64,000 nucleotides of DNA from Alphaproteobacteria bacterium (GCA_965248915.1 OZ252216.1:2857807-2921806), one strand, 5' to 3'; counted from the stretch's first letter, positions 14,432 through 41,216 are shown. Program-made: numbers and translations. Notes: generated by a model from the sequence alone, not told the origin.

Positions 14432-15157
14432 ATGAACAAGGACGTTTTGTTGGAGTGGGGCAAAACCATCGCCATCGTCGTTGGACTGGTTTTTGCCATT
14501 CAAACCATCGCCTTTGCGTCTTTCCACATTCCGTCTGAAAGCATGGCGCCTACATTGACAGTTGGTGATCGTGTTGTGGTGACGAAATTTTCTTATGGCT
14601 ATTCACGCCACTCTGTTCCTTTCAGCTTGGCCCCATCGCTCCCAACCAAGAGCGGACGCATCATCGGCCAAATACCTAGTCGCGGCGACATTGTTGTCTT
14701 TAGACACACCCGCGACGACATCACCATGATCAAACGTGTGATTGGGTTGCCTGGAGATCGCGTGCAGGTAAAACAGGGTCAACTTCATCTCAATGGAGAA
14801 TTGGTCGAACGAGAAAAATCCCGCGAGTACACATACACGACTCGAAACGGTCAATCCTACCAAGTCCGCGAGTACATTGAACAACTACCAGATGGGCCGG
14901 CCCACACGATCATCGAAATTGCGCCAGATAGCCTTATGGACAATACGAGAGAGTATACGGTCCCCGAAGGGCATCTGTTTATGATGGGAGACAATCGAGA
15001 CATGTCGAGCGACAGTCGGTTCCTCAACAAACTCGGCTTCGTGCCATTCGAAAACCTCATGGGCCGAGCTCAAGTGATCTCATATTCCTTGCACAATTGC
15101 GCCAAGAAGAACCCCGATATCTGCAATTCGAGCAGAATTCTGAAACGGCTGAAGTAG
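14432..15157 (+). CDS. lepB: Signal peptidase I (copy 1)
   Basis: N-terminal TM, catalytic SESMAPTL (Ser box), IKRVIGLPGD (Lys box), GDNRDMSSDSR box. Confidence 0.9.
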   Translation: MNKDVLLEWGKTIAIVVGLVFAIQTIAFASFHIPSESMAPTLTVGDRVVVTKFSYGYSRHSVPFSLAPSLPTKSGRIIGQIPSRGDIVVFRHTRDDITMIKRVIGLPGDRVQVKQGQLHLNGELVEREKSREYTYTTRNGQSYQVREYIEQLPDGPAHTIIEIAPDSLMDNTREYTVPEGHLFMMGDNRDMSSDSRFLNKLGFVPFENLMGRAQVISYSLHNCAKKNPDICNSSRILKRLK

Positions 15158-15179: not shown

Positions 15180-15932
15180 ATGTCAAGAAACTCCACAAAC
15201 AAAAATAGGTGGCACAAGAAGCCAAGAGAGTGGATTGCAAGGATATTGTTCGTTGTTGCCTTCACGGTGGCTATCAGTTTTTATGCAAGCAAGACATACA
15301 CGGTCACCGCGGATAGCATGACTCCGGCACTTGTCGCCGGCGATCGTGTCATTGTGAGCAAATTCACGTATGGAATTTCACGCTATTCGTTTCCCTTCGG
15401 AATACTCCCCTCTTTCCCGACCAAATCAGGGCGCCTATTTGGGAGTGAGCCCAAGCGGGGACACATTGTTGTATTTCACCACACCAAAGAACAAATTGTA
15501 ATGATCAAACGGGTGGTTGGCTTGTCTGGTGACCGAGTTCAGGTCAAAGGGGGGCAACTTCACCTCAACGGCAAGCCTGTCGAAAGGGAAAAGTCCCGAG
15601 AGTACGAATACGCGGCTCGCATCGGGCAATCGTATCAAGCCCAGGAATACATTGAGCGCCTGCCAGGCGGATCAGCGTATGCTATTATTGAAATCACAAA
15701 CGATGGGCCATTGGACGACACGGATGAGTTCACGGTCCCAGATGGACACTTGTTTATGATGGGGGACCACAGAGATATTTCGAGCGACAGTCGACTCATC
15801 GATCGTCTCGGCTTTGTACCTCTTGAAAACCTGATGGGGCGAGTGCGTTTTATCTCCTTTTCGAAGGGAGATTGCGATGAAAGGAATCCCGATATCTGCA
15901 ACTCAAGCAGAATACTAAAGAGACTGCATTAG
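15180..15932 (+). CDS. lepB: Signal peptidase I (copy 2, tandem paralog)
   Basis: Same boxes ([29 protein letters not shown]). About 60% identical to copy 1, including an identical C-terminus [14 protein letters not shown]. Confidence 0.9.
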
Positions 15933-27200: not shown

Positions 27201-28202
27201 CTATTCACCCGCCGGGACTGTGAGCGCTTCAAGTGATTCAAAGAGTCTCTCGAAGTGCATTTGAATCAGCGTGCCCTCAAGGACCAACTCTGCCCAAGGA
27301 AAAACGACAACTAGTAAGAGAATAAGCATGATCGCGATTGGAGCGAAGACCAGCACCTGCCCAGTCCGTGTCAATCTAACAATCCTACCTTTGAGTTGCC
27401 CAAACTCTAGTGGCTTAGGGTCTCCAGACGCATCCGTTTCATTCAGAGTATTCAGGTACTCACCCACGCCAAATCTTCTTGCAAGCCAACTGTTATAGCC
27501 AATCAGACCAACGATAATGGGATACATCAAAACAAACAGGGCACCGAATGACAGAGCCACAATCCATGTCATCAAAATTGAGGTCTCGAGAAAAAGTCGC
27601 GTGAAATCATGCCCGAGGTTTGCGCCAGAGATAAGCACAGGAATGACACTGGCATAGTACACGCTGCCAAGCGCGAAAACAGCCGACAGAACTACCATCA
27701 ATGGCATCACTTTTATAATTTCCTTCACAGCCCATTGCTGTCTATCAGGCACCGCAACACCTCGTGGGTACGGATTGGCTTTTCCAGACAGACCGAATTG
27801 TATAGTTGGGAGTATTGCCATCAACGCTGGAATCCAAGCGCCGACAAATATGAACCCATTATCGTCGAGCAATAGTGGAAGCAACAACAATCCTGGCCAC
27901 AGCCCCACTAGAGGAATGAGAAGCAGCATTCCGGGCCAGAAGGCGAAGTTCTTAACTGCCAACAAACCAAGCGCCAGCAGAACAACAAGTGCACCCGTCA
28001 CAATCAGATGAAGACTAAAGACCGGAACAAACGACGCGTGTGAGGGAATAGGGTCATCAAACAAGGCGAACAGGGGCGCCGAGTCATTGATCCCCGCCCA
28101 AATTGCCCAGCAGCCGATAGCGACATTGACCGCGCCAAGCGCCAAAAACAAAATCCGCCGCACAGGACTTTCATTCCCAACGTTCGGCTCAATCTTTTCC
28201 AT
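27201..28202 (-). CDS. Hypothetical polytopic membrane protein (paralog A)
   Basis: 333 aa; lower-GC codon usage; shares architecture and a C-terminal module with 30169..31173. Confidence 0.5.
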   Translation of the reverse strand: MEKIEPNVGNESPVRRILFLALGAVNVAIGCWAIWAGINDSAPLFALFDDPIPSHASFVPVFSLHLIVTGALVVLLALGLLAVKNFAFWPGMLLLIPLVGLWPGLLLLPLLLDDNGFIFVGAWIPALMAILPTIQFGLSGKANPYPRGVAVPDRQQWAVKEIIKVMPLMVVLSAVFALGSVYYASVIPVLISGANLGHDFTRLFLETSILMTWIVALSFGALFVLMYPIIVGLIGYNSWLARRFGVGEYLNTLNETDASGDPKPLEFGQLKGRIVRLTRTGQVLVFAPIAIMLILLLVVVFPWAELVLEGTLIQMHFERLFESLEALTVPAGE

Positions 28203-30168: not shown

Positions 30169-31173
30169 TCAAGGTCTGGGCTCAACAAACAGACCATCGA
30201 CTGACTCGTAGTTGTGCTCCCAGACCGCAAAGAAGAGCCGACTCAACCAACTCTCTGGATTATCAATGATGAAGAATTCAATTCCAACAATCAGAGCCAG
30301 CATCACTAAGATCGCAAGCAGCCAAATTGTGATTTGAATTCGAACTCCTGTCTTGGAGACCTTGATGTACTGTTGGCCTTGTGATGTTCTCGGCAGAAAA
30401 CGGTGCTCCATGGGATGTTTCCGGTAGACCCCCACTGCAAAATGTCGAGATATCAATCCACCTGACCAGATGAAGGTCGCAAGCAATAGGATCATCGGGA
30501 AGGTGGAAATCACCACAAACGGCGTCATCGCAATGCTGCTTGTAACGACAAGCGAAACCAATGCAATGCCAAACCCTTCGATAGGAGCAAGTCCCTTCAC
30601 GAATATTGAGAACTCTATCGACGGCAATATATTGAAGACGGAAAATAAAAACGCCGAAAAAAGTACAATGAAAGGCAGAACAATAACTGGTGGCCCAGGA
30701 ATCGCGGCACGCCATGGCATTGCAATTGAATCTGGGTATAGAATTTGAGGTCGTAGCCCGACGGCCGAAGATATACCATGTAACAAAGCGACTGCTGCAA
30801 GACCGGGAAAGTGCAATTCGAAGAATGGAATGACAGTCATGGTCACTCCAGCCGATATCTCCACTAAGAATCCCATCAACATCAAGAGAACGATCAAGAT
30901 CGAAAAGAACTGCCGTCTAACTGAATTCCAAAGTACGCCCAATGAGAAGACGCTCAAAATTACACTCAGCCACAAATGGATCGTCATGAGACGCACGGCG
31001 TGCTCTGTCGGGTACGGAAGGGCAGACATCGGCGAATAGGGAACCGCGACACCAAGTGCCGCTCCAACGGCCCAGGCAAAAGCCACCACATTGAGCCCCA
31101 TCAGGATGAACAATGTACGCTTCCGCGTCTTCGAAAGCACAGGATCGACAGGATCGATAAGTTCCACGCGCAC
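30169..31173 (-). CDS. Hypothetical polytopic membrane protein (paralog B)
   Basis: 334 aa; low GC; architecture parallels 27201..28202. Confidence 0.5.
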   Translation of the reverse strand: MRVELIDPVDPVLSKTRKRTLFILMGLNVVAFAWAVGAALGVAVPYSPMSALPYPTEHAVRLMTIHLWLSVILSVFSLGVLWNSVRRQFFSILIVLLMLMGFLVEISAGVTMTVIPFFELHFPGLAAVALLHGISSAVGLRPQILYPDSIAMPWRAAIPGPPVIVLPFIVLFSAFLFSVFNILPSIEFSIFVKGLAPIEGFGIALVSLVVTSSIAMTPFVVISTFPMILLLATFIWSGGLISRHFAVGVYRKHPMEHRFLPRTSQGQQYIKVSKTGVRIQITIWLLAILVMLALIVGIEFFIIDNPESWLSRLFFAVWEHNYESVDGLFVEPRP

Positions 31174-31222: not shown

Positions 31223-31444
31223 TCAAATCTCCATGGGGATCTTGGGACGGAAGAAGTTGAGGCGTAGCGCGTCAATCTTGGCGACAACTTCCGCCTCAAG
31301 CGCACCCAACGCTTCTGCATCAACAATCTCTTGAAGCTCTTGCCGATTCTTCACGCCGAGAACGAGCGTGTCGACCCCGTCCATTTGCAAGGCATAGCGA
31401 TGGGCCAGGATGGCCGGGTTTTCCCCGAGCTCTGCACACAAGGC
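31223..31444 (-). pseudogene. Orphan duplicated 3' end (last 74 codons plus stop) of the aldo/keto reductase gene at 32772..33776
   Basis: 222 bp nearly identical to 32772..32993, with 2-3 synonymous mismatches in the first 30 nt. It begins exactly at the stop codon. Confidence 0.9.
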
Positions 31445-31520
31445 TTTGTTATGTAACTCGCAAAAATCCCAATTTCTAGGTTTGTATAAGGTATTTTCGG
31501 AATTATGCGGCACGAGGTGG

Positions 31521-31600
31521 CTTGTGATTCACCAGTGATTCACAAACCTATTTGTATTTCATATTTTGAGTTTTATGATTCACAAACATATTTGTGTTAC
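31521..31600 (+). promoter_or_regulatory. AT-rich promoter/operator region upstream of fic with repeated TGATTCAC / TGATTCACAAAC(C/A)TATTTGT motifs
   Basis: TGATTCAC at 31524, 31536 and 31576. Two 20-nt near-identical repeats at 31536-31555 and 31576-31595. Imperfect palindrome ACAAACATATTTGT. Confidence 0.45.
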
Positions 31601-31660
31601 ATAAATGTTTGTTTATAAGCCACAATTGATTGCACCAATTCAACCCTTAGAATAAGATGG

Positions 31661-32767
31661 GTGTCCATGCAACCATATACTCCAGAAGCGCTACCGCCAA
31701 GAGATCTCGACTGGGCGCAACTCATCGAGGGCTTAAGCAATGCCAACCAAGCTATTGCTCGCTATGACGGAAGGTTGGAATCACTCCACAATCCAGCAGT
31801 CCTGCTGTCACCGCTTACAATGCAGGAAGCAGTCATGTCTTCTCGCATCGAAGGTACCGTAGCAACGTTGAGTGACGTGCTAGAATACGAAGCTGGACAA
31901 ACAGACATTCACCCCGAAAAAAGAGAAGACATTCATGAAATTCTAAACTACCGCACAGCGATGAATGTCGCTGTTCGAGAATTGGTATCGAGTCCTATTA
32001 CCCTAAAGTTGATCAAGCGCCTGCACTTTATTCTCATGGACAGCGTTAGAGGTCGTAACAAGAGAAGGGGAGAAATTCGTGTAATACAAAACTGGATCGG
32101 CCCCAAAGATCGCCCAGTTGAAGAGGCGTATTTCATTCCCCCGATTGCTCTTGATCTCGAAAGACATCTTACCCACTTCGAAACATATGCCAATTCTCGC
32201 CAGCCAGACGCACTCATCCAGGCGGGCCTTCTTCATGCTCAATTCGAACTACTTCACCCATTTCTCGATGGTAATGGAAGGCTCGGACGACTTCTCATCC
32301 CGCTCTTCCTATCCAAGCAGGGCGTATTGCAGTCGCCAATGTTTTACATTAGTGGCTATCTGGAAACACATCGGCAAGAATACTATGACCGACTACAAGC
32401 CCTGTCCGAGCAAAGAGATTGGACCGGCTGGCTCAACTTCTTTCTGAAGGCCATCACGTCGCAATCAGACGAGAACTCCGGGCATATACAGGCAATTCGC
32501 ACTCTCTATGAATCGATCAAGGTCAATGCAATCGAAGAGATAAGGTCACAATATTTCATTCAAGCGATCGACACAATATTTACCCGCCCATATTTCACGA
32601 CAACGCTGTTCACCGAAGAGTCAAGCATACCCAGACCAAGCGCAATCAGGTTATTGAATGCTCTTGAGGAACTTGACATCATACTTCAACTCCGGCCGGC
32701 GAGCGGGAGTCGGCCCGCCGTCTATTCATTCCCGGAGCTTCTTTACATCGCCGAACGAAACGACTGA
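31661..32767 (+). CDS. fic: Fic family protein (AMPylase-type, class II with N-terminal inhibitory helix)
   Basis: Fic active-site motif HPFLDGNGRLGR; inhibitory motif SSRIEGT (S-x-x-x-E-G) near the N-terminus; lower GC than surroundings. Confidence 0.9.
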   Translation: MSMQPYTPEALPPRDLDWAQLIEGLSNANQAIARYDGRLESLHNPAVLLSPLTMQEAVMSSRIEGTVATLSDVLEYEAGQTDIHPEKREDIHEILNYRTAMNVAVRELVSSPITLKLIKRLHFILMDSVRGRNKRRGEIRVIQNWIGPKDRPVEEAYFIPPIALDLERHLTHFETYANSRQPDALIQAGLLHAQFELLHPFLDGNGRLGRLLIPLFLSKQGVLQSPMFYISGYLETHRQEYYDRLQALSEQRDWTGWLNFFLKAITSQSDENSGHIQAIRTLYESIKVNAIEEIRSQYFIQAIDTIFTRPYFTTTLFTEESSIPRPSAIRLLNALEELDIILQLRPASGSRPAVYSFPELLYIAERND

Positions 32768-32771
32768 CCCC

Positions 32772-33776
32772 TCAAATCTCCATCGGGATTTTGGGACGGA
32801 AGAAGTTGAGGCGTAGCGCGTCAATCTTGGCGACAACTTCCGCCTCAAGCGCACCCAACGCTTCTGCATCAACAATCTCTTGAAGCTCTTGCCGATTCTT
32901 CACGCCGAGAACGAGCGTGTCGACCCCGTCCATTTGCAAGGCATAGCGATGGGCCAGGATGGCCGGGTTTTCCCCGAGCTCTGCACACAAGGCGCGGTAG
33001 GGCTCAGCACGGATGTAATCCTGCATATCCGGCTCGTTGACATCCATCGACCGGTCAATTTGTGCCGTTAGTGCGCCTGCTTGCACAGCGCGAATGCCCA
33101 TGACACCCACATCATTGTTCTTCGCGGTGCGGATGATATTGCGCGGCTCCGGTGGTTCCTCATAGCGACGAATGCCGCCGGGCGAATCCATCAAGTTCGT
33201 GATCGCTTGAACGACCGCCGGCTTTGTCTCTTGTCGAAGTGCCGCCATGATGGTGGCGGGAAGGCCTGTGCCGGTAAGGCCCCAAGCGCCGATGAGCCCG
33301 CGCTCCTTCAAGTTTTCAACAGCAGGGATGAAAGCGTCTAAATAGTTCGACCACGACACCGTCCAGCGTTCTTGGGTATCACTGTTTTGCGCCATCACAT
33401 AATTGTCGGGGATGACCTGACAATGCAGGAAGAAGAGATCAACGCGGTCTTGTTTGAGGGCTTCGAAACTTCGCATGAGTGAGCGTTCAATCTTGGCCAA
33501 CATGTCATCTGGCGGCAATGTGCCGGTCAGGCATTTGGTGGTGACGCACACACCCTCTGGCAACCTGCCGCCAAAGGTCTCCCCCACCACGCTTTCTGCT
33601 TCGCCGCGCCCATACATCGGCGCCAGGTCAAGGAGCGTAATGCCAGCATCAACAGCCGCCTTCACCGTTGCGACCGCTTCTGCCCGCGTCGTTTCACCCC
33701 AAATTTGTCCAAGTCCGCCACCGCCCAGCGTCAGCGCACTTACAGGGCCAAAGCCCCCAAGCTCTCTCATGTCCAT
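32772..33776 (-). CDS. Aldo/keto reductase family oxidoreductase
   Basis: 334 aa with AKR fold motifs (GLTGTGLPA; C-terminal module). Its 3' 222 bp are duplicated at 31223..31444. Confidence 0.8.
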   Translation of the reverse strand: MDMRELGGFGPVSALTLGGGGLGQIWGETTRAEAVATVKAAVDAGITLLDLAPMYGRGEAESVVGETFGGRLPEGVCVTTKCLTGTLPPDDMLAKIERSLMRSFEALKQDRVDLFFLHCQVIPDNYVMAQNSDTQERWTVSWSNYLDAFIPAVENLKERGLIGAWGLTGTGLPATIMAALRQETKPAVVQAITNLMDSPGGIRRYEEPPEPRNIIRTAKNNDVGVMGIRAVQAGALTAQIDRSMDVNEPDMQDYIRAEPYRALCAELGENPAILAHRYALQMDGVDTLVLGVKNRQELQEIVDAEALGALEAEVVAKIDALRLNFFRPKIPMEI

Positions 33777-33832
33777 GGGGTAATGTTTAGCAGAGTCCGG
33801 CGCCCAAAGGCATCAGGTCTTCACGATAATTT

Positions 33833-34507
33833 CTAACTAACGACCCCGTATTGGTCGTAAAGATCGGTCCGGTAGTAATCACGTTGCTGTTCGAGCTCGA
33901 CGAGATCCTGCTGCAAATACTTGATCTCCTTTTCGAGATCATCCTCAGCTTTCGACAGCTCGACCACTTTGATCACCAACTTCATGCGGGCCAAATCGGT
34001 CATATCCCCTTCGACGATCTCCCACTGGGTCTCTTCGATCTCATGGATGATGTCCTCAAGGTCAGACCGGTGCGACCGGATCGTGGCTTGTTGGGCAGCC
34101 ACTTTCCGGTTGTATTGATAGAGTTGACGCCCCGCCTGATAAGCTGCCGAAAACACGCCGTCGCTGTCCTCAGGGCACACATTGGCGTAAGCACCACCAC
34201 GAATACCGACTTGCAGGCCATTGGGTTCGCGACAATATGTCTGAAGGCCCTCTTCGCGGCCGTCCGAATAGGCAAGGAAGTTGGGTGTCACACCATGGGC
34301 CGCACACGCTTTGCGGTGACGCGCGATGTGATCTGCTGAACGGCCCTGAACGCCGTCCTCAAAGCCAACCGCATTCCAATCAGCGGCGACACATTCACTC
34401 TCGCTCATAGAGGCACACGCACTCAACAAAGAGGCACCCCCCAGCATGGCAACAAGCGCAATTGACTTCAGTCCCGTCATCATCCGTACCCTTCTTATTT
34501 GAATCAA
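33833..34507 (-). CDS. DUF2799-domain lipoprotein
   Basis: Lipobox LLSAC; the ECVAADWNAVGFEDGVQGR repeat is typical of DUF2799. Confidence 0.55.
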   Translation of the reverse strand: MIQIRRVRMMTGLKSIALVAMLGGASLLSACASMSESECVAADWNAVGFEDGVQGRSADHIARHRKACAAHGVTPNFLAYSDGREEGLQTYCREPNGLQVGIRGGAYANVCPEDSDGVFSAAYQAGRQLYQYNRKVAAQQATIRSHRSDLEDIIHEIEETQWEIVEGDMTDLARMKLVIKVVELSKAEDDLEKEIKYLQQDLVELEQQRDYYRTDLYDQYGVVS

Positions 34508-34591
34508 ATTCGAACGGTTTCCCGTTCAAACCTGCATCAATGAGAAGTGTAGGAGGGAGGGACTAACAATTGCTTAGACTTACTTAAGAGT

Positions 34592-35848
34592 TTAACGATA
34601 CCCGCGAATATCCCAAGCACCTTCATGACCAAGCGCGAGGCGCGCGATCTTCTTTGACATGTTGTAACCACCGCGCTTGCGGCTGACGAAATCCAGGAAC
34701 CCGCCAGTATTGGTAAGAATGACAATACCGTCACCGGTATCTGGATCAATGACGAAAAGACCCTGGTAGCCTGGGTTACTGCCCCAGTGCCAATAGGTCG
34801 TGCGCTCATCAGACATATCGATGCCGATGCCCGCTGCCCAGGACGTGCGTTTGTTGATTTCAACCATCGGCGCCAACATGGCATCACGCGTTTCCACTGA
34901 AACAAGAGTGGGCTTGATGAGCTCCACCGCGAAACGCGCGAGATCATGAACCGTAGTCTCAAGGCTTGAGGCCAACATCACCTCGTTTTCTACCGAATTG
35001 ATGGGAACGGTAACCCGGGACATGGCAAAAAGAGCGCTAGCGCCAATAACAAAGATGGTCAGGACGGAAAGAAAGAGACCGCGAACAAAGCCGAAAGATC
35101 TAAAGAAGAAGGCCGCACCAAAGAGAACAATAACACTGAGAATGATCAACATGGTTCTGCCACGTTTTTGATCGACCTCTTGTGCCCGGCCTGACAACAG
35201 ACCAAACACCAGATCCACATGGCCAGTCGCCATCTGTTCCGTCACCGCCGGTTGAAACCGTGCACTTGTCATATCAAGAGGCGTAAAAATTCGCTCCTCA
35301 ATCCAGGCGTTCGCCGCCACGCCTGTTTCCGCTTCAATCATGGATTGGACCACATGATAGCCCTGGCCTGCATAGGAAAAGTCGGGCTCATCTGAACAGG
35401 CAGCGACAAATTCCTCTGCAAAGATATCGTTGCCAAGCCCAGCTGTGTGGGAAAGGGCCTGACCCAAAGTGGGGCGTGCGCAATCCTTCTTGAGTGTTAG
35501 TCGCGCATCCTCAATCGGGTCATTTAAGGACATGCGCCCCTCTTCGATCAGCGCAAAGGATGCGTAGGCCGCAATCATCTTGCCGTTCGACGCGGCCTGG
35601 AACTCGGTTTCCATGTCTGTGAGTTCTAGGGTCTCCATGTTCTTGACCCCAAACATCTCTACCCAAGCAATCTCACCATCGCGAATAAGCGCAATGCCCG
35701 CGCCCGCGACATCTGCCTCCTTCATGAGGTCAGGGATCGCCGCGCGTAGCTCATCAATCGAGACAGGCTCCGCACTGGCGCCAGCAAGAGAGCCGGTAAA
35801 TCCAAAGGCGAGCATCAAAGGGGTTAGAATTCTGAGAAAGAAAGTCAC
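34592..35848 (-). CDS. Serine hydrolase (beta-lactamase/PBP-like transpeptidase fold)
   Basis: Signal peptide. S-x-x-K-like motif FQAASNGK; class C beta-lactamase-like fold with a C-terminal membrane segment. Confidence 0.65.
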   Translation of the reverse strand: MTFFLRILTPLMLAFGFTGSLAGASAEPVSIDELRAAIPDLMKEADVAGAGIALIRDGEIAWVEMFGVKNMETLELTDMETEFQAASNGKMIAAYASFALIEEGRMSLNDPIEDARLTLKKDCARPTLGQALSHTAGLGNDIFAEEFVAACSDEPDFSYAGQGYHVVQSMIEAETGVAANAWIEERIFTPLDMTSARFQPAVTEQMATGHVDLVFGLLSGRAQEVDQKRGRTMLIILSVIVLFGAAFFFRSFGFVRGLFLSVLTIFVIGASALFAMSRVTVPINSVENEVMLASSLETTVHDLARFAVELIKPTLVSVETRDAMLAPMVEINKRTSWAAGIGIDMSDERTTYWHWGSNPGYQGLFVIDPDTGDGIVILTNTGGFLDFVSRKRGGYNMSKKIARLALGHEGAWDIRGYR

Positions 35849-35851
35849 AAG

Positions 35852-36751
35852 CTAGTCCAACGCCGCCGGAACCGGCACGCCTGCTTGGCGACACGCGGCC
35901 ACCACCGTGTTGCGCAAAAGGCAGGCAATGGTCATCGGCCCGATGCCACCGGGCACAGGTGTGATCGAGCCCGCAACGTGCTTAGCCGCCTCAAAATCAA
36001 CGTCTCCGATGAGACGGGTCTTCCCTTCGCCTTTCTCTGGCGCAGGGATCCGGTTGATGCCGACGTCCAAAACGCAAGCACCAGGCTTCACCCAATCGCC
36101 TTTGATGAGATGGGCCACGCCAACAGCCGCAACCAAAATATCAGCACTGCGGCACACTGCATCCAAATCGCGTGTGCGGGAGTGGGCCATGGTCACCGTG
36201 CAGTTTTCATTGAGCAAGAGTTGTGCAACAGGTTTGCCAACCAGGATGGACCGGCCAACCACAACCGCGTTAAGCCCTGTGAGATCGCCGACCGCATCTT
36301 TGGCCAACATCACCGTCCCAAAAGGTGTGCAAGGCACCATCGTGTCTTGTCCGAGCAAGAGCTTGCCTGCACTCACAGGGTGCAAGCCATCAACGTCCTT
36401 CGCGGGCAGGATGGTTTCCACCACCAGTTTCTCATCAACCTGTTTCGGCATCGGCAACTGACATAAGATGCCGTGCACCGCCGGGTCGGCATTGAGCTTT
36501 TCAACCATCGCCACCACCTCTTCATGAGGTGTGTCTTCAGGCATGGTGTGCGTCCATGAATTCATGCCCGCCTCTAAGGTCTGTTTGCCTTTGGAGCGCA
36601 CGTAGACCTGGCTGGCCGGGTCCTCCCCGACGAGCACGACAGCGAGGCCGGGCGTCAGGTCATGGGAAGATTTCAATTCCGCAACGATCTCGCCGATGCG
36701 GGCCCGCAACTTTTCAGCAAAGGCCCGACCATCAATAACTCTAGCGCTCAT
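35852..36751 (-). CDS. folD: Bifunctional methylenetetrahydrofolate dehydrogenase/methenyl-THF cyclohydrolase
   Basis: Conserved motifs GKPVAQLLL and [10 protein letters not shown]. Confidence 0.92.
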
Positions 36752-37062
36752 GACATCCCCTCAATCCAGGCTCGAATCTGTCTTGTCTGCTCATCCCCGC
36801 CACCGGAAATCGCCACCACTTTGATCCGGCTGGTCTCACCTGATTGTAGCGTCAGATGAGAGGCCGGAACACCCGCTGATTTAGCAATCAGCTTGATGAG
36901 TTGCGCGTTCGCTTTACCCTTTTCTGGTGCGGCTGTCACCCGTGCTTTCAGGGCCCGCCGCCCGTCTGCTAGATCGACGATCCCCTCTATCGCCGCCCGC
37001 GATGACTTCGGCGTCAAACGCACCGTCAGAGCCAGGCCGGCCTTGGTGGTTTTGAGCGGCAT
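36748..37062 (-). CDS. yggU: DUF167/YggU family protein
   Basis: 104 aa; (K)AR-x-x-A-x-P-E-x-G-KAN motif; conserved yggT-yggU pairing. Confidence 0.7.
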
Positions 37063-37085
37063 CGCCGTCCTTCAGAACTGGCTAT

Positions 37086-37373
37086 TTAGAATATGTAGAA
37101 AATGACCCGCCGCAAAAACATGATCCCGATCAAGAGCACGATCGGTGACAAGTCGAGCCCGCCAATGGGAGGGATGACATTGCGGATCGGCTGCAACAGC
37201 GGCTGTGTCACCCGCGCGGTAAAGTCCGTAATGGTGCGCACCGCCTGATTGGCACGGTTGATCACATTAAATCCGATGAGCCAGGAGAGCACGACGTCAA
37301 TGATCACGATCCACACGAGAATGTCGAGCAAGAGCATAATCAGCCAAAGGATCGGGTTCGAATGAGAAGACAT
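37086..37373 (-). CDS. yggT: YggT family membrane protein
   Basis: 95 aa, two TM helices. The signature PIRNVIPPIGGLDLSPIVLLI is typical of YggT. Confidence 0.75.
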   Translation of the reverse strand: MSSHSNPILWLIMLLLDILVWIVIIDVVLSWLIGFNVINRANQAVRTITDFTARVTQPLLQPIRNVIPPIGGLDLSPIVLLIGIMFLRRVIFYIF

Positions 37374-37559
37374 GAATGAGAAACTCCTTAAAATTCCTGC
37401 GCCCGCAGAGACCTGGTCAACGCAAGATACCGGTCCGCAGGCTTACAAGCCGGGCTGTCTGTTCTCACATGTAGCGATTGAGGCGCGCCCCTGCAAGCCC
37501 ACCTCTGAAAAGCACTGCCTTGTCAGGCGGTTGCCAGAGGGTCACAATGATCCTGAAAT

Positions 37560-37635
37560 GGGGCCGTAGCTCAGTTGGGAGAGCGCTACGTTCGCAACGT
37601 AGAGGTCAGGGGTTCGATTCCCCTCGGCTCCACCA
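37560..37635 (+). tRNA. tRNA-Ala (anticodon CGC)
   Basis: Manual cloverleaf: acceptor GGGGCCG/CGGCUCC with the G3:U70 alanine identity pair. D arm GCUC-AGUUGGGA-GAGC. Anticodon loop UUCGCAA. T arm AGGGG-UUCGAUU-CCCCU. Encoded CCA end. Confidence 0.9.
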
Positions 37636-37653
37636 GGGATTTGGGAAAACACA

Positions 37654-38139
37654 ATGCGTCTATCACTGGCCGCCACTTTTCTTTCTTTTTTCATCGTGGT
37701 TGCACCAAACAGCGCCAAGGCCGTTTGGTCCCCGTGGGAGTATTTTGAGGTCGGCGGCGGCGCGGCAAAGGGCGGAAGATCCGGTGTCAAAGTTGCGGAC
37801 CCACGCAAAGGTCAATCTATCGCCATCATCTGTATGCCAGCCCAAAATCAATTGGTGGTCGCGATCCGCAACGGCCCAAGAGACAACAGGTATGACAAGC
37901 AGCGAGCGGTCACCTGGCGCGTCGATCTCGCTCCCGCGGTCTCAACAACTTTCATGAATTTGGACCAAGGCGGGGCCGGCCTGTTTGATCCCAACCAAGT
38001 TCGCACATTTATGAGCGCATTGCGCTTCGGGCGCGACAATGTCCTCATTCGAAGCAACGGCGACACCATCGAAGCTCCCTTAGATGGCTCTGCTTCTGCC
38101 ATCGGCGAGTTGATTGAGGCATGCCCCCTCGTAAACTAG
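37654..38139 (+). CDS. Hypothetical exported protein (signal peptide)
   Basis: N-terminal signal peptide ending APNSAKA-VW; no recognisable domain. Confidence 0.45.
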   Translation: MRLSLAATFLSFFIVVAPNSAKAVWSPWEYFEVGGGAAKGGRSGVKVADPRKGQSIAIICMPAQNQLVVAIRNGPRDNRYDKQRAVTWRVDLAPAVSTTFMNLDQGGAGLFDPNQVRTFMSALRFGRDNVLIRSNGDTIEAPLDGSASAIGELIEACPLVN

Positions 38140-38145
38140 CGCACC

Positions 38146-38235
38146 TCACACAAAAGGATGCGGATAATCGGGCGGGCGCCCTTGAAATTCCAAGACGGCG
38201 GGCTTCTGGACCACCCCTTCATCTACAGTGATCAC
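38146..38235 (-). pseudogene. Diverged orphan copy of the 3' end (about 29 codons plus stop) of the gene at 39245..40387
   Basis: Minus-strand translation VITVDEGVVQKPAVLEFQGRPPDYPHPFV* versus the gene C-terminus NTDEGVIQKPAILEFQGRAPDYPHSFV*. About 80% nucleotide identity. Confidence 0.8.
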
Positions 38236-38296
38236 GTCAAAAAAAGTCATACCCGATTTCCTCTATTCTCGGTCCACAAGCACCAAGCAATCACAA

Positions 38297-39025
38297 TTAC
38301 CACATTGCGTTTGGGGTCTTCTTTTGTTCGTGCAAATCCCCGCCGCTTATCCGGTCCCAGAACCGGCCGCCGACCAATTGCTCTGCGTCATAAGTGACAA
38401 CAAGATATTCACCGAGATCGCCAGTTAACTCTCGATTCTCCATCTCAAAAGTCCAAAGCGACAATCTTCCTTTTGCATCTTCGGCAAGAACACTTTTGAT
38501 GAATGCATGGGGAACAGGCACATCGATGCCATAGTCGTCATTCTCATCCCCAATTGTCTCCACTTTCTCTCCAAAGTAAAAGACCGGGGCTGTCAAGACA
38601 TAGGTCTCAAGGATATCCTCTCGATCATTCAATACCCGCACTGCCTTCTCAAGCTCTCGCCACTTGCGTCGATTGAATTCCGGTTTTTGCGGTGACATGT
38701 TTGACAGCAAAAAGGTTTCGCTATTTTGAATCTCCTGAATGTCTTGGTTTGCACTTGCAACAAGATGGCCGCGATCAAATCCGCTACCGCTGTAAGCACC
38801 AAGACCCGCGCGGAAACGTTTTGGTATTCTTGTTTCCGCCCGAAAGTGGTCTTGGCGTTCTACTTCTGAAAGGAGATGTTCGTTTCGATTTACAATTTCC
38901 AGCGTCCATTTTGCTTGTCTGAAGTACCATGAATAGCCAATCGTAAAAAATCGACCCGTTAGTATCTCATCACATACGGGAGCTCCGTAACGAAGTTCAG
39001 GTTGAATCTGAAATGGATCATTCAT
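38297..39025 (-). CDS. DNA/RNA non-specific endonuclease (Serratia nuclease/EndoG family; DRGH motif); alternative start at 39097
   Basis: FDRGHLVASANQ catalytic motif with a downstream SNMSPQ (N) motif. No signal peptide. Lower GC than neighbours. Confidence 0.8.
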   Translation of the reverse strand: MNDPFQIQPELRYGAPVCDEILTGRFFTIGYSWYFRQAKWTLEIVNRNEHLLSEVERQDHFRAETRIPKRFRAGLGAYSGSGFDRGHLVASANQDIQEIQNSETFLLSNMSPQKPEFNRRKWRELEKAVRVLNDREDILETYVLTAPVFYFGEKVETIGDENDDYGIDVPVPHAFIKSVLAEDAKGRLSLWTFEMENRELTGDLGEYLVVTYDAEQLVGGRFWDRISGGDLHEQKKTPNAMW

Positions 39026-39244
39026 ATCAATTCTCTTTCGGTCATCATCGTTCAATTGCTCGTGGCCAGCCAATCGACAAACCACACATGAAAACATCTA
39101 ATAATTGTTATTCCACAGAAAAGCAACCTTCGACAATTGAGCAAACTCATTCCTATGTCAATATCAATCTAGTGAACGTGACGGCGAATGCGGGCGGAAG
39201 ACATAGTAGGTTTCTACGGCACTTCAAATTTCACGATCCCAGAA

Positions 39245-40387
39245 TTACACAAACGAGTGCGGATAGTCGGGCGCGCGCCCTTGAAATTCCAAGATGGCGG
39301 GCTTCTGTATCACCCCTTCATCTGTGTTGATCGCCTGGCGGATGGATTCACATCCCTGCCACTCATCGCGGCCAGCAAGAACCGTTTCGACATGAGGCAC
39401 TAGCGCTTCCGAAAGGCACCGCGAGGCACTCTCCCAAAGATAACAAGGGGTGTGATCGACCGCGTAGTACCCCACATCGCCGACCCAAAACATGGGATCA
39501 TCAAAACCCGTCGGCTTGGCAAAATAAAACCCCATGCCTTCGTCGCAACTCACATCAATCACGAGCGCCCCCGCTTTCAGGCTGTCTCTTTCCTTTTCGG
39601 TAACGAAGAGAAGCGGGTTGTTGGGATCTTGAAAAATGCCATTGATCAAAATGTCCGTTTCGCTAATGAGATCGGACAACGGTCTCTCCGTGCCATCGAC
39701 TGCACATGCCACCAACCGCGGCTCACCGGCACGGCCGTCGCGCAAGCGCATATAGCTACACCCCAAAACCTCCTCACGGATCACATAGTCCGGTTGCTTC
39801 GTGCAAACCGTGATGTCTTGAAAACCGAGCGCCTGCAGTGCACTGATGGCCCCGAAGCTCACCGCACCGAACCCAAAAATGACAACCTTACGGTTGTTAC
39901 CGTAGTGTCCATTGATGCCGCTCAAATGGGTTGCATGTAACACCGCGCAATATCCCGCCAGTTCATTGTTCTTGTAAAATGTGTGACGACGGGGCCGACC
40001 GCGTGGGCTCCAAACATACATGTCCTCAAAGGCAATGAGCGTGAGTTTCCGGTCGATAGCAGCTTGGGTAATGTCCCCTTGTTGGGCGCAATGGGGATAG
40101 CCCCACAAAATGCCCCCATCAGGCATTTCCTCAAGATCTTTGAGCATAGGCTTGGCAAGAATGGCCGCCCCAATGTCCGACAATATTTCCCGGCGCGACG
40201 TCACCCCGCCTGTCATCTCAGTGATCTGTGCATCAGACCATCCAAACCGCTGGCCGTAGCCTTCTTCAAAGACAAGATGGCGCCGAACGTCTTCAGACAG
40301 TCGCTCCAAATGATCCGGATGAAGCGGAACGCGCGTTTCATTTTTCTTTCGTGACGTTCCGATCACGCCAAATGTCAATTGGGTCAT
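39245..40387 (-). CDS. Alanine dehydrogenase/PNT-family NAD(P)-binding protein (N5-(carboxyethyl)ornithine synthase-like)
   Basis: AlaDH/PNT-type N-terminal and Rossmann domains (VVIFGFGAVSFGAISAL). Start at MTQLTFGVIG with an AAGGAA RBS. Confidence 0.6.
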   Translation of the reverse strand: MTQLTFGVIGTSRKKNETRVPLHPDHLERLSEDVRRHLVFEEGYGQRFGWSDAQITEMTGGVTSRREILSDIGAAILAKPMLKDLEEMPDGGILWGYPHCAQQGDITQAAIDRKLTLIAFEDMYVWSPRGRPRRHTFYKNNELAGYCAVLHATHLSGINGHYGNNRKVVIFGFGAVSFGAISALQALGFQDITVCTKQPDYVIREEVLGCSYMRLRDGRAGEPRLVACAVDGTERPLSDLISETDILINGIFQDPNNPLLFVTEKERDSLKAGALVIDVSCDEGMGFYFAKPTGFDDPMFWVGDVGYYAVDHTPCYLWESASRCLSEALVPHVETVLAGRDEWQGCESIRQAINTDEGVIQKPAILEFQGRAPDYPHSFV

Positions 40388-40518
40388 GTCATTCCTTATG
40401 CAAACCAAATTCACGCCGAAATCAAACGGCGACTAGCATCTACGATTCTGAAGAGATCATGGCCTAACGCAGCAGTAGGCGCAATTGCTGCTTGTGGGGC
40501 CTATGCGCGCACCACGGT

Positions 40519-40905
40519 CTAGCTTAGCTCACGGCGTGCCGCTCGCGCATCACCAAAGCTATACCAGATGATCCAGAGCAACAGGACCTGAAGCAACAAT
40601 CGGACATATAGGGCGATCAAAGGCACATCCGGAAAGAGCTCTGGGTTCATGGCCATGTGAATGTTGGCGGGCGTGACCGCAAGCGTGAGCGCGATCAACC
40701 CATAGCCCGCCATCAAACGCGTGCGAGTGAGGAGGAGACCGAGCGCGCCTAAGATTTCAAAGGCACCACTGATCCACACAATTTCCAAGTGGTGCGGCAA
40801 ATAGGGTGGCATGATCGCCACGAAAAATTCAGGATTGGTAAAATGGTTGATGCCGCCAAACAAGAAATAGGCAGCGACCAGTAAGATCGCGATGATCCGG
40901 AGCAT
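40519..40905 (-). CDS. DoxX family membrane protein
   Basis: 128 aa, 4 TM, DoxX-like pattern. Confidence 0.6.
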   Translation of the reverse strand: MLRIIAILLVAAYFLFGGINHFTNPEFFVAIMPPYLPHHLEIVWISGAFEILGALGLLLTRTRLMAGYGLIALTLAVTPANIHMAMNPELFPDVPLIALYVRLLLQVLLLWIIWYSFGDARAARRELS

Positions 40906-40937
40906 TCTCCCCCCTTGGTATTGTTATGCGAGCGCCT

Positions 40938-41216
40938 TTAACTCACCGCTTCCAATTGGCGAGGCGTTGGCGTGGTTAGGACCTCACTCAACGCATCAAG
41001 CGCATTATTGACACGTCGGCGCTCTTCCAAGAGATGATTGAACTGTTGATCACACCCCGCAATGGGCGTTGGGTAATTGGAAATCTCAACGTCCAACAAC
41101 TTTGCGGCTTCATCTAATTTCGCCTTCGCAAGCATGACACTACTCTCATACCTCATCGCAAGATCCCTTCCGATTGAACCTTGGCCCAGTCTATCACGGT
41201 TCACCACAGCTCGCAA
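40938..41216 (-). CDS. Hypothetical protein (92 aa)
   Basis: ORF only; no motif recognised. Confidence 0.3.
   Translation of the reverse strand: MRAVVNRDRLGQGSIGRDLAMRYESSVMLAKAKLDEAAKLLDVEISNYPTPIAGCDQQFNHLLEERRRVNNALDALSEVLTTPTPRQLEAVS

Follow-up and report, generated by a model that had tools for sequence, protein, structure and literature searches.

Introduction

Numerous defence and toxin genes occur singly in chromosomal hotspots without recognisable mobile-element machinery. Among the known phenomena in which a gene end is duplicated or displaced are insertion-duplication and homology-facilitated illegitimate recombination (HFIR), reportedly studied by de Vries and Wackernagel and by Prudhomme et al., and the C-terminal displacement that Jackson et al. 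(2009) and Kirchberger et al. (2017) are said to have described in Rhs, contact-dependent inhibition (CDI) and type VI secretion system (T6SS) loci. Here we examine a 64,000-nucleotide stretch of DNA from Alphaproteobacteria bacterium (GCA_965248915.1 OZ252216.1:2857807-2921806; hereafter the window, with positions counted from its first letter), in which a gene for a Fic AMPylase and a gene for an EndoG-like nuclease each lie between an intact resident gene, which we call the host gene, and a second, orphan copy of that gene's 3' end. We propose that each of these two cassettes is the scar of one recombination event anchored in the end of the resident gene, and we give this proposal about an even chance of being right.

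When a plasmid bearing part of the lacZ end integrated into the E. coli chromosome, most products were single crossovers; exchange between the chromosome and such a circular molecule, whose homologous segment was truncated, left 109-950 bp of the gene end in two copies around the foreign DNA. The inserts gained by HFIR are about 1 kb on average (PMC3240628). HFIR and C-terminal displacement have both been proposed as models for the orphaned 3' regions found at T6SS and Rhs loci (PMC5361080). The longer of the two repeats described here, at 222 nt, falls inside the published range of 109-950 bp and the shorter, at 88 nt, slightly below it.

Two resident gene ends are duplicated around single genes

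A repeat search of the whole window yields two pairs of long dispersed direct repeats and no others, the remaining repeats being one 40-nt tandem and two matches of 36-37 nt at about 70%. The first pair, 31223-31444 and 32772-32993 (222 nt, 220 of 222 positions identical, 99%), is the 3' end of an aldo/keto reductase (AKR) gene, with two mismatches that are both synonymous. The second, 38146-38233 and 39245-39332 (88 nt with the stop codons counted, identity about 86%), is the 3' end of an AlaDH/PNT-like gene. The stop codon is where the similarity begins in either pair; beyond it the bases are unrelated and nothing aligns. Both host open reading frames (ORFs) are intact. Each pair encloses one gene, a Fic gene in the first and an Endonuclease_NS gene in the second, and the two cassettes lie about 6.5 kb apart, both inside 8 kb. 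A first-pass annotation of this DNA had claimed two stop-anchored gene-end duplications, each bracketing one low-GC gene, and this is confirmed. The features concerned are the following.

31223..31444, minus strand: orphan AKR end, the last 222 nt, that is 73 codons plus stop
31445..31660, plus strand: Fic upstream region, AT-rich, GC 0.33
31661..32767, plus strand: cargo 1, SoFic-type Fic AMPylase, 368 aa (Fic_N 7e-26, Fic 1.5e-15)
32772..33776, minus strand: host gene 1, intact aldo/keto reductase (Aldo_ket_red 1.7e-51)
37560..37635, plus strand: tRNA-Ala(CGC), given for context; the gene content on its yggT side is kept in relatives
38146..38233, minus strand: orphan AlaDH/PNT-like end, the last 29 codons plus stop TGA
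38297..39025, minus strand: cargo 2, EndoG-like nuclease, 242 aa (Endonuclease_NS 2.8e-32); the mechanical ORF runs to 39097
39026..39244, minus strand: nuclease upstream region, GC 0.42, from the nuclease start to the host-gene stop
39245..40414, minus strand: host gene 2, intact AlaDH/PNT-like gene with stop TAA (AlaDh_PNT_C and AlaDh_PNT_N)

The two cargo genes differ in base composition from the genes beside which they lie, with GC at third codon positions (GC3) of 0.50 for Fic and 0.44 for the nuclease as against 0.64 for AKR and 0.60 for the AlaDH/PNT-like gene, and the cargos are therefore compositionally foreign; the duplicated gene ends are host-like in GC3, unlike the cargos. The arrangement within the cassettes is not the same in both. 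The common order that had been proposed, of host gene, promoter block, cargo and orphan, describes the nuclease cassette; in the Fic cassette the cargo is on the opposite strand and converges on AKR, with the two stops 4 nt apart, and its AT-rich block adjoins the orphan and not the host gene. Similarly, the AT-rich promoter block attributed to both holds as far as the low GC of the two upstream regions is concerned, but sigma-70-like sites, two in number, occur only upstream of Fic, and no consensus promoter was found upstream of the nuclease.

The first orphan lies 49 nt upstream of the start of a membrane-protein gene (30169..31173, minus strand), and the ORF that contains it (31223..31513) matches the Aldo_ket_red profile at positions 230-289 only. 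The second lies 6 nt from the stop of a convergent ORF (37654..38139, plus strand) and is in frame, without insertions or deletions, and with its stop retained. Comparison with homologues shows that it keeps the family-conserved residues DEG, ILEFQGR and YPH, and the two ends of host gene 2 differ by synonymous or conservative changes at conserved positions, so that they look like two functional alleles rather than a gene and its decaying copy. No inverted repeats were found at the ends of the inserts and no transposase, as a transposon or insertion sequence would have, and the duplications measure 88-222 nt. Orphan read-through aside, no small antitoxin ORF fits in the gaps of the cassettes (31445-31660, 32768-32771, 38234-38296 and 39026-39244), and the statement that neither cargo has an adjacent antitoxin gene is correct as an observation.

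The Fic gene and its putative operator

The product of the first cargo gene gives a full-length match to the SoFic model of PADLOC (1.3e-108), matches the Shewanella oneidensis SoFic structures 3eqx and 3zcn (about 6e-32), and is about 30% identical to S. oneidensis SoFic as judged by eye from the alignment. Its active-site motif is HPFLDGNGRLGR, and its SSRIEG aligns to SSEIEN, the motif of the SoFic inhibitory helix. The features that define a class II Fic are all present, namely Fic_N, Fic and C-terminal domains together with HxFx(D/E)GNGRxxR and (S/T)xxxE(G/N), and the protein is accordingly a self-inhibited Fic of class II, of a type that is listed among the anti-phage systems made up of one gene. 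The lack of an adjacent antitoxin, presented earlier as a puzzle for both cargos, largely dissolves for Fic, because the SoFic architecture has an intramolecular inhibitory motif. For E. coli Sofic a 47-aa downstream antitoxin, AS1, has been reported (PMC12249575). The Fic described here differs in having none, and with only 4 nt between the Fic and AKR stops there is no room for an AS1-like antitoxin.

Upstream of Fic are two palindromes of the form CACAAA-N4-TTTGTG (31541-31556 and 31581-31596), where 0.16 would be expected by chance. Palindromes of this type are also found upstream of Fic relatives in two other sequences, L004 (6370-6450) and L176 (255-345), notwithstanding the fact that these relatives are only about 62% identical to the Fic of the window. 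The palindromes are probably the operator of this SoFic lineage, through which Fic would be autoregulated, and the operator may be bound by the C-terminal winged-helix domain of Fic itself.

The EndoG-like nuclease

The second cargo protein matches the Pfam family Endonuclease_NS (PF01223), carries the DRGH catalytic motif (GFDRGHL) and matches solved EndoG structures at 1e-20. Its homologues are 242-256 aa long, 76-89% identical, and cover 91% of the ORF, from which the start is probably M25, at 39025. There is no visible signal peptide, and the protein is predicted to be a cytoplasmic EndoG-like beta-beta-alpha-Me enzyme.

The homologues span the Rhizobiaceae, Rhodobacterales, Marinobacter and many Bacteroidota, mostly marine, and identities of 76-89% across Bacteroidota, Alpha- and Gammaproteobacteria argue for frequent horizontal transfer of the nuclease. 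What is shared at the DNA level is confined to 38298-39025 and ends at the boundaries of the coding sequence (CDS), with no conserved non-coding ends travelling with the gene in the comparison with homologues. The settings of the homologues vary: one lies in a phage-like contig (L086) beside a portal gene, and others stand by themselves, with unrelated genes on either side, in Rhizobiaceae and in one Parvibaculaceae genome. Neither flanking repeats around the homologues nor a conserved neighbour of the subfamily was found. Among isolated phages and plasmids there was no match to the nuclease of at least 60% identity, and no relative was found in a scan of viral contigs. PADLOC gives no match for the nuclease, for ORF161, which is discussed below, or for the AlaDH-like gene.

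The two sites in related genomes

The first cassette is set in a conserved gene block. About 65 species representatives of the Parvibaculaceae keep the block tRNA-Ala, yggT, DUF167, folD and AKR, the closest AKR relative being 78% identical. At none of these ~65 loci is there a Fic gene after AKR, and an orphan AKR end was found in none of 85 loci of relatives, even at E<10; the DNA downstream of AKR differs in every relative. In a metagenomic contig (L004; AKR 68%, FolD 78%) a Fic gene (62%) converges on AKR with the stops 13 nt apart, and the homologous operator region is present without the duplication or a second repeat copy. In L176 the Fic module (62%) lies upstream of a GFA gene and not of AKR.

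The second cassette is set in DNA of a different kind. Its host gene is a rare accessory gene, and ORF161, the orphan, the nuclease and the AlaDH-like gene are absent from all relatives that share the tRNA-yggT-folD block. The nuclease, ORF161 and the orphan are likewise missing near the homologues of host gene 2, in 0 of the 80 closest metagenome loci (59-65% identity). Thus the nuclease has not been found beside the same gene in relatives; the Fic (in L004), as well as the cargo of one of the cases described in the next section (the GST case of L044), has been. A near-identical donor of either cassette was not found, and a scan of genome contigs with the neighbouring beta-lactamase-like gene gave no sister strain for comparison.

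Several further observations concern the surroundings of the two sites. The stretch 37636-41000 on the 3' side of tRNA-Ala(CGC), which also holds a DoxX-like gene, is absent from the relatives with the tRNA-yggT-folD block, and the window holds no repeat of the tRNA-Ala 3' end that would mark an island boundary. Between folD and AKR lie a DUF2799 gene (33833..34507) and a beta-lactamase-family gene (34592..35848); folD and AKR are directly adjacent (about 15-50 nt) in ~65 relatives, which makes this a third insertion in the block, without duplication. Two low-GC genes for membrane proteins of about 334 aa (27201-28202 and 30169-31173), with no Pfam match and distantly paralogous to each other over their full length (24%), occupy a variable stretch between argG and the orphan AKR end and are absent from all relatives compared. 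At 14432-15157 and 15180-15932 are tandem signal-peptidase-I-like genes with about 68% DNA identity over 598 aligned nucleotides, an ordinary pair of paralogues.

In other contigs the AlaDH-like gene is itself bracketed by repeats: in L130 (1-2472) by copies of an IS6-family transposase, in the manner of a composite transposon, and in L131 (117-233 and 1944-2061), L098, L169 and L165 by non-coding direct repeats. These brackets imply that the host gene of the second cassette is mobile elsewhere; as candidates for further gene-end duplications they were rejected, the repeats being IS6 copies (L130) or non-coding.

Stop-anchored gene-end duplications elsewhere

The first-pass annotation had argued from the recurrence of the architecture within the window. 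A self-BLAST of 175 sequences (2.26 Mb), from which we kept direct repeats with a boundary no more than 6 nt from the stop of a long ORF, extends this recurrence beyond the window with three more clean cases, one in L083 and two in L044. In L083, a Caulobacter metagenome-assembled genome (MAG), the insert is a gene for a PemK/MazF-like toxin, which stands between two copies (99% identical) of the final 92 nt of a pentapeptide-repeat gene. L044, a Rhodobiaceae MAG, has one insert at rlmN and another at a GST gene. At rlmN the terminal 55 nt occur twice (85%), with the stops TAG and TAA, and an SNase-like nuclease gene lies between the copies; at the GST gene it is the terminal 51 nt that recur (88%), on the two sides of a 428-aa gene. 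The inserts of these three cases are about 0.7-1.5 kb long (0.73-1.46 kb over all five cases), and all three cargos have a GC3 well below that of their hosts. Matches of the same scan in L081, L020 and L082 proved to be internal or paralogous repeats and were excluded.

The sites of these additional cases vary in what they hold. The gap between rlmN and MOSC is empty (33-133 nt) in 7 genomes and holds a GST-like gene in 2, and only in L044 does it hold the SNase-like nuclease and the orphan. At the Caulobacter site three different single genes are present in three genomes, with an orphan in one only. The cargo swapping and variable occupancy that had been suggested are therefore seen among the relatives of L083 and L044, where the same sites are empty or hold other genes; the outcome that the annotation named as telling against it, a pattern that does not recur and has no variable cargo, is not what we find. 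A further observation at the Caulobacter hotspot is a 740-aa protein in L082 (14384-16606), whose C-terminal region resembles, by eye, a CHAT/caspase-like protease, and which may be another single gene of defence type.

Further details come from the two cases in L044. In the rlmN case the orphan occupies the position that the rlmN end has in the empty-site genomes, and at two positions where the functional end differs it has the bases typical of the clade (weak evidence), so that the functional end looks imported. The 428-aa gene inserted at GST shares 35% identity with a homologue, the native downstream gene, and is also homologous to the neighbour of GST in seven relatives, five of them with an intact GST, and the case looks like an imported syntenic block. 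Beside this we note that a GST remnant occurs in relatives of L044 as a 67-codon 3' piece in L061 (4349-4549), with none in L034, and the history of the site in L044, where the orphan has 17 codons, appears to be more complex than a single insertion.

These data bear on whether horizontal input is needed at all. An identity of 99% in the first repeat pair is what would be expected of a recent local duplication, and the cassettes might have arisen in situ, by tandem duplication or rearrangement within the strain. However, tandem duplication gives A-B-A-B, and there is only one copy of each cargo here; the cargos are foreign in composition; ~65 relatives have no Fic at the site; the ends in the second cassette differ as alleles do and not as a gene and a decaying copy; and in L044 it is the orphan and not the functional end that carries the clade-typical bases. 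We consider an origin in situ very improbable.

A separate question is whether the two cassettes belong together. They could be the products of two unrelated events that are alike only in appearance, selection against gene disruption giving both their stop-anchored look; the nuclease, for example, could be the decayed end of a prophage or island, and the Fic cassette a recombinant of two haplotypes of the DNA downstream of AKR. Consistent with such a separation, the repeat identities of 99% and 86% point to different ages or sources, the cargos differ in orientation, one cassette lies in a block of conserved core genes and the other in strain-specific DNA beyond a tRNA, and Fic has a syntenic relative whereas the nuclease has none. 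Set against this, the 64 kb contain no other such repeats, the distance between the two is 6.5 kb, and the same architecture occurs twice in 21 kb of L044 where the background is three cases in 2.2 Mb outside the window. An origin in unrelated events seems to us improbable.

Search for a dedicated element

In form the cassettes also resemble site-specific integrative elements without an integrase of their own, whose attL and attR would be the two repeat copies. Direct repeats flank each insert, one of them within the target gene, where it restores the ORF. Such an element could be a miniature one, like a cis-mobilizable element (CIME), mobilised by a tyrosine recombinase encoded elsewhere, or it could be the last remnant of a larger island or prophage from which the integrase was deleted. 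Stop-anchored surrogate ends of the target gene are a hallmark of integrative elements that preserve target function (PMC7192596), and elements that lack an integrase but have att sites at both ends are recognised as a class (PMC5704250 and ICEberg 2.0). The units are compact and their edges sharp, the 86% surrogate of the second cassette shows conservative changes, the closest homologue of the nuclease (88%) is the one beside a portal gene in a phage-like contig, and the second cassette lies in strain-specific DNA beyond tRNA-Ala, all of which would be consistent with an element of this kind.

The first-pass annotation had called for a search for a recombinase acting in trans, and none was recognised: the ORF translations of the cassettes and of the 64 kb window, as read by us with Pfam applied to the genes of the region only, include no recognisable recombinase or transposase. 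Nor was a cognate integrase-bearing element, or any element, found at these positions in ~65 AKR loci or 80 AlaDH-like loci (0 in both sets). The two repeat pairs have no sequence in common, as their local alignment score is no better than that of shuffled controls, so that two or more different integrases would have to be assumed for the window and five for all the cases together. An integron gene cassette was considered and rejected, since the repeats show no attC-like folding (z of -1.8 to +1.5 for folds against shuffles) and the window has no recognisable intI. Neither cassette was seen again, with its boundaries and at its site, in another genome: L004 has Fic beside AKR without a second att copy, the Fic module of L176 adjoins another gene, and the homologues of the nuclease have no flanking repeats, their homology ending at the CDS. 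In L044, moreover, a cargo is the homologue of the native neighbour, which an autonomous element would not predict. Of the two mechanisms that had been offered, homologous recombination at the gene end fits these results better; an element served by an integrase in trans is less favoured, and we think it unlikely, while treating it as a serious competitor.

Proposed recombination anchored in the resident gene end

In the mechanism that we favour, the incoming DNA would have linked a foreign gene to a duplicate of the resident gene's 3' end, and it would have entered by a crossover within that gene end, using the general recombination machinery of the host. We infer two possible routes. A small circular molecule could have been inserted by a single crossover, or a linear donor fragment, running from the gene through its stop into the cargo, could have been inserted by HFIR, joined homologously within the gene and illegitimately at a point 88-222 nt ahead of the recipient's stop. 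HFIR would be expected to show microhomology of 3-10 bp where the illegitimate join lies, and to depend on RecA. Either route would leave an intact host gene, its end perhaps derived from the donor, followed by the cargo, the displaced native end and the native downstream DNA. A donor in which the cargo already followed the gene directly would account for the loss of similarity between the copies at the stop codon, and sites that hold a cargo and no orphan in other genomes would be the result of ordinary double crossovers. The cargo genes would then be ordinary passengers of the flexible genome.

The A-B-A anatomy, with the copies of A anchored at the stop codon, counts for an insertion of this sort, in which part of a locus is duplicated around ~1 kb of foreign DNA without an element recombinase. 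If recombination is homologous, a cargo may also lie beside the corresponding gene in relatives, and in two cases (Fic in L004 and the GST case of L044) it is such a syntenic neighbour. Further support is provided by the sites themselves, the rlmN-MOSC gap, the Caulobacter site and the region downstream of AKR all being flexible hotspots. The seemingly imported functional end in L044, the allele-like ends of the second cassette, the low GC3 of all cargos beside host-like duplicated ends, and the negative results for a recombinase ORF in the 64 kb window, for a core common to the repeat pairs and for attC-like structure count in its favour too.

Several points weigh against this interpretation. 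All five inserts are compact single-gene units, as would be expected of discrete cassettes and not obviously of random illegitimate joins, with the junctions 8-183 nt past the cargo stop or, for Fic, 216 nt before its start. The distance from the host stop to the beginning of the cargo is 0-4 nt throughout, which pushes the first insertion back to an unseen donor, and for the window neither a donor nor a conspecific genome with an empty site was found. For stretches of 51-88 nt at 85-88% identity, recombination should be very inefficient, unless the copies diverged only after insertion. The nuclease is absent from the neighbourhood of the 80 host-gene homologues, and the negative result for recombinases covers 64 kb of the genome, by reading of ORF translations, so that an integrase encoded elsewhere may exist. 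Finally, the clustering of events, two in 8 kb of the window and two in 21 kb of L044, suggests an activity specific to certain lineages.

Some of these points would be accommodated by a sub-case of the homology-anchored explanation, in which the 3' end of a conserved gene, joined to a toxin or defence gene, makes up a minimal mobile element that would rely on RecA for its recombination, with the gene end serving as an attachment site that it carries along. A crossover between the repeat copies would free a circle of ~1-1.5 kb and restore the empty site, and after transformation, or transfer by a gene transfer agent or phage, a single crossover at the same gene end of a related cell would insert the circle again. 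Cycling of this kind would explain the compact single-gene size, the anchoring at stop codons, the clustering, and the presence of lone defence genes in hotspots without mobile-element genes. We regard it as a rather unlikely refinement.

The cassettes preserve the junctions of insertion, the incoming DNA having brought a replacement copy of the neighbouring gene's end, and they illustrate one way in which lone defence-type genes may enter chromosomes without a recombinase. If the pattern is common, stop-anchored gene-end duplications would be a searchable signature with which gene gains driven by recombination could be dated and counted, and which would tell the donor side from the recipient side of each event. 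The 222-nt repeat at 99% predicts that Fic is lost and regained at a measurable frequency.

Comparison with known systems

Considered singly, the cargos belong to familiar families. The Fic protein is like SoFic defence proteins (PADLOC PDLC03963; 3eqx, 3zcn) in its full-length match, in HPFxDGNGRxxR and S-x-x-x-E-G, and in being encoded by a stand-alone gene. The nuclease has the DRGH active site and the match to the beta-beta-alpha-Me fold family of the sugar-non-specific EndoG/NucA nucleases (PF01223), although it differs in having no signal peptide and no NuiA-like inhibitor gene nearby.

As for the cassettes, in integrative elements that provide their target gene with a surrogate end, phage 21 and e14 (icd) and ICESt1 and CIMEs (fda) among them (surveyed in PMC7192596), the direct repeats derive from the end of the target gene, the gene is kept intact and the displaced native end is left as a pseudo-fragment, as here, and CIMEs lack an integrase as the present cassettes do. 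The differences are that neither an integrase nor a cognate element was found in the loci and window searched, that the units measure 1.0-1.5 kb and consist of one gene, that the targets share no core, and that the same cargo occurs without repeats in relatives. With C-terminal displacement in Rhs, CDI and T6SS loci (PMC5361080) the cassettes share a resident 3' end left downstream as an orphan; in those systems, however, the new end encodes a different toxin domain together with an immunity gene, whereas here the new end has the same sequence as the old, and what is novel is a separate gene after the stop codon.

There is a further likeness to insertion-duplication and HFIR, in which, as here, about 1 kb of foreign DNA lies beside a homologous anchor, part of the anchor is duplicated, and no recombinase is encoded by the element. 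Those studies concern laboratory events with engineered substrates, whereas the present cases are natural and lie at the 3' ends of intact genes; unlike the laboratory products of HFIR they end exactly at the stop codon and carry single genes of toxin or defence type. The cassettes are best filed as a natural, recombinase-less variant of these known phenomena of gene-end duplication and displacement.

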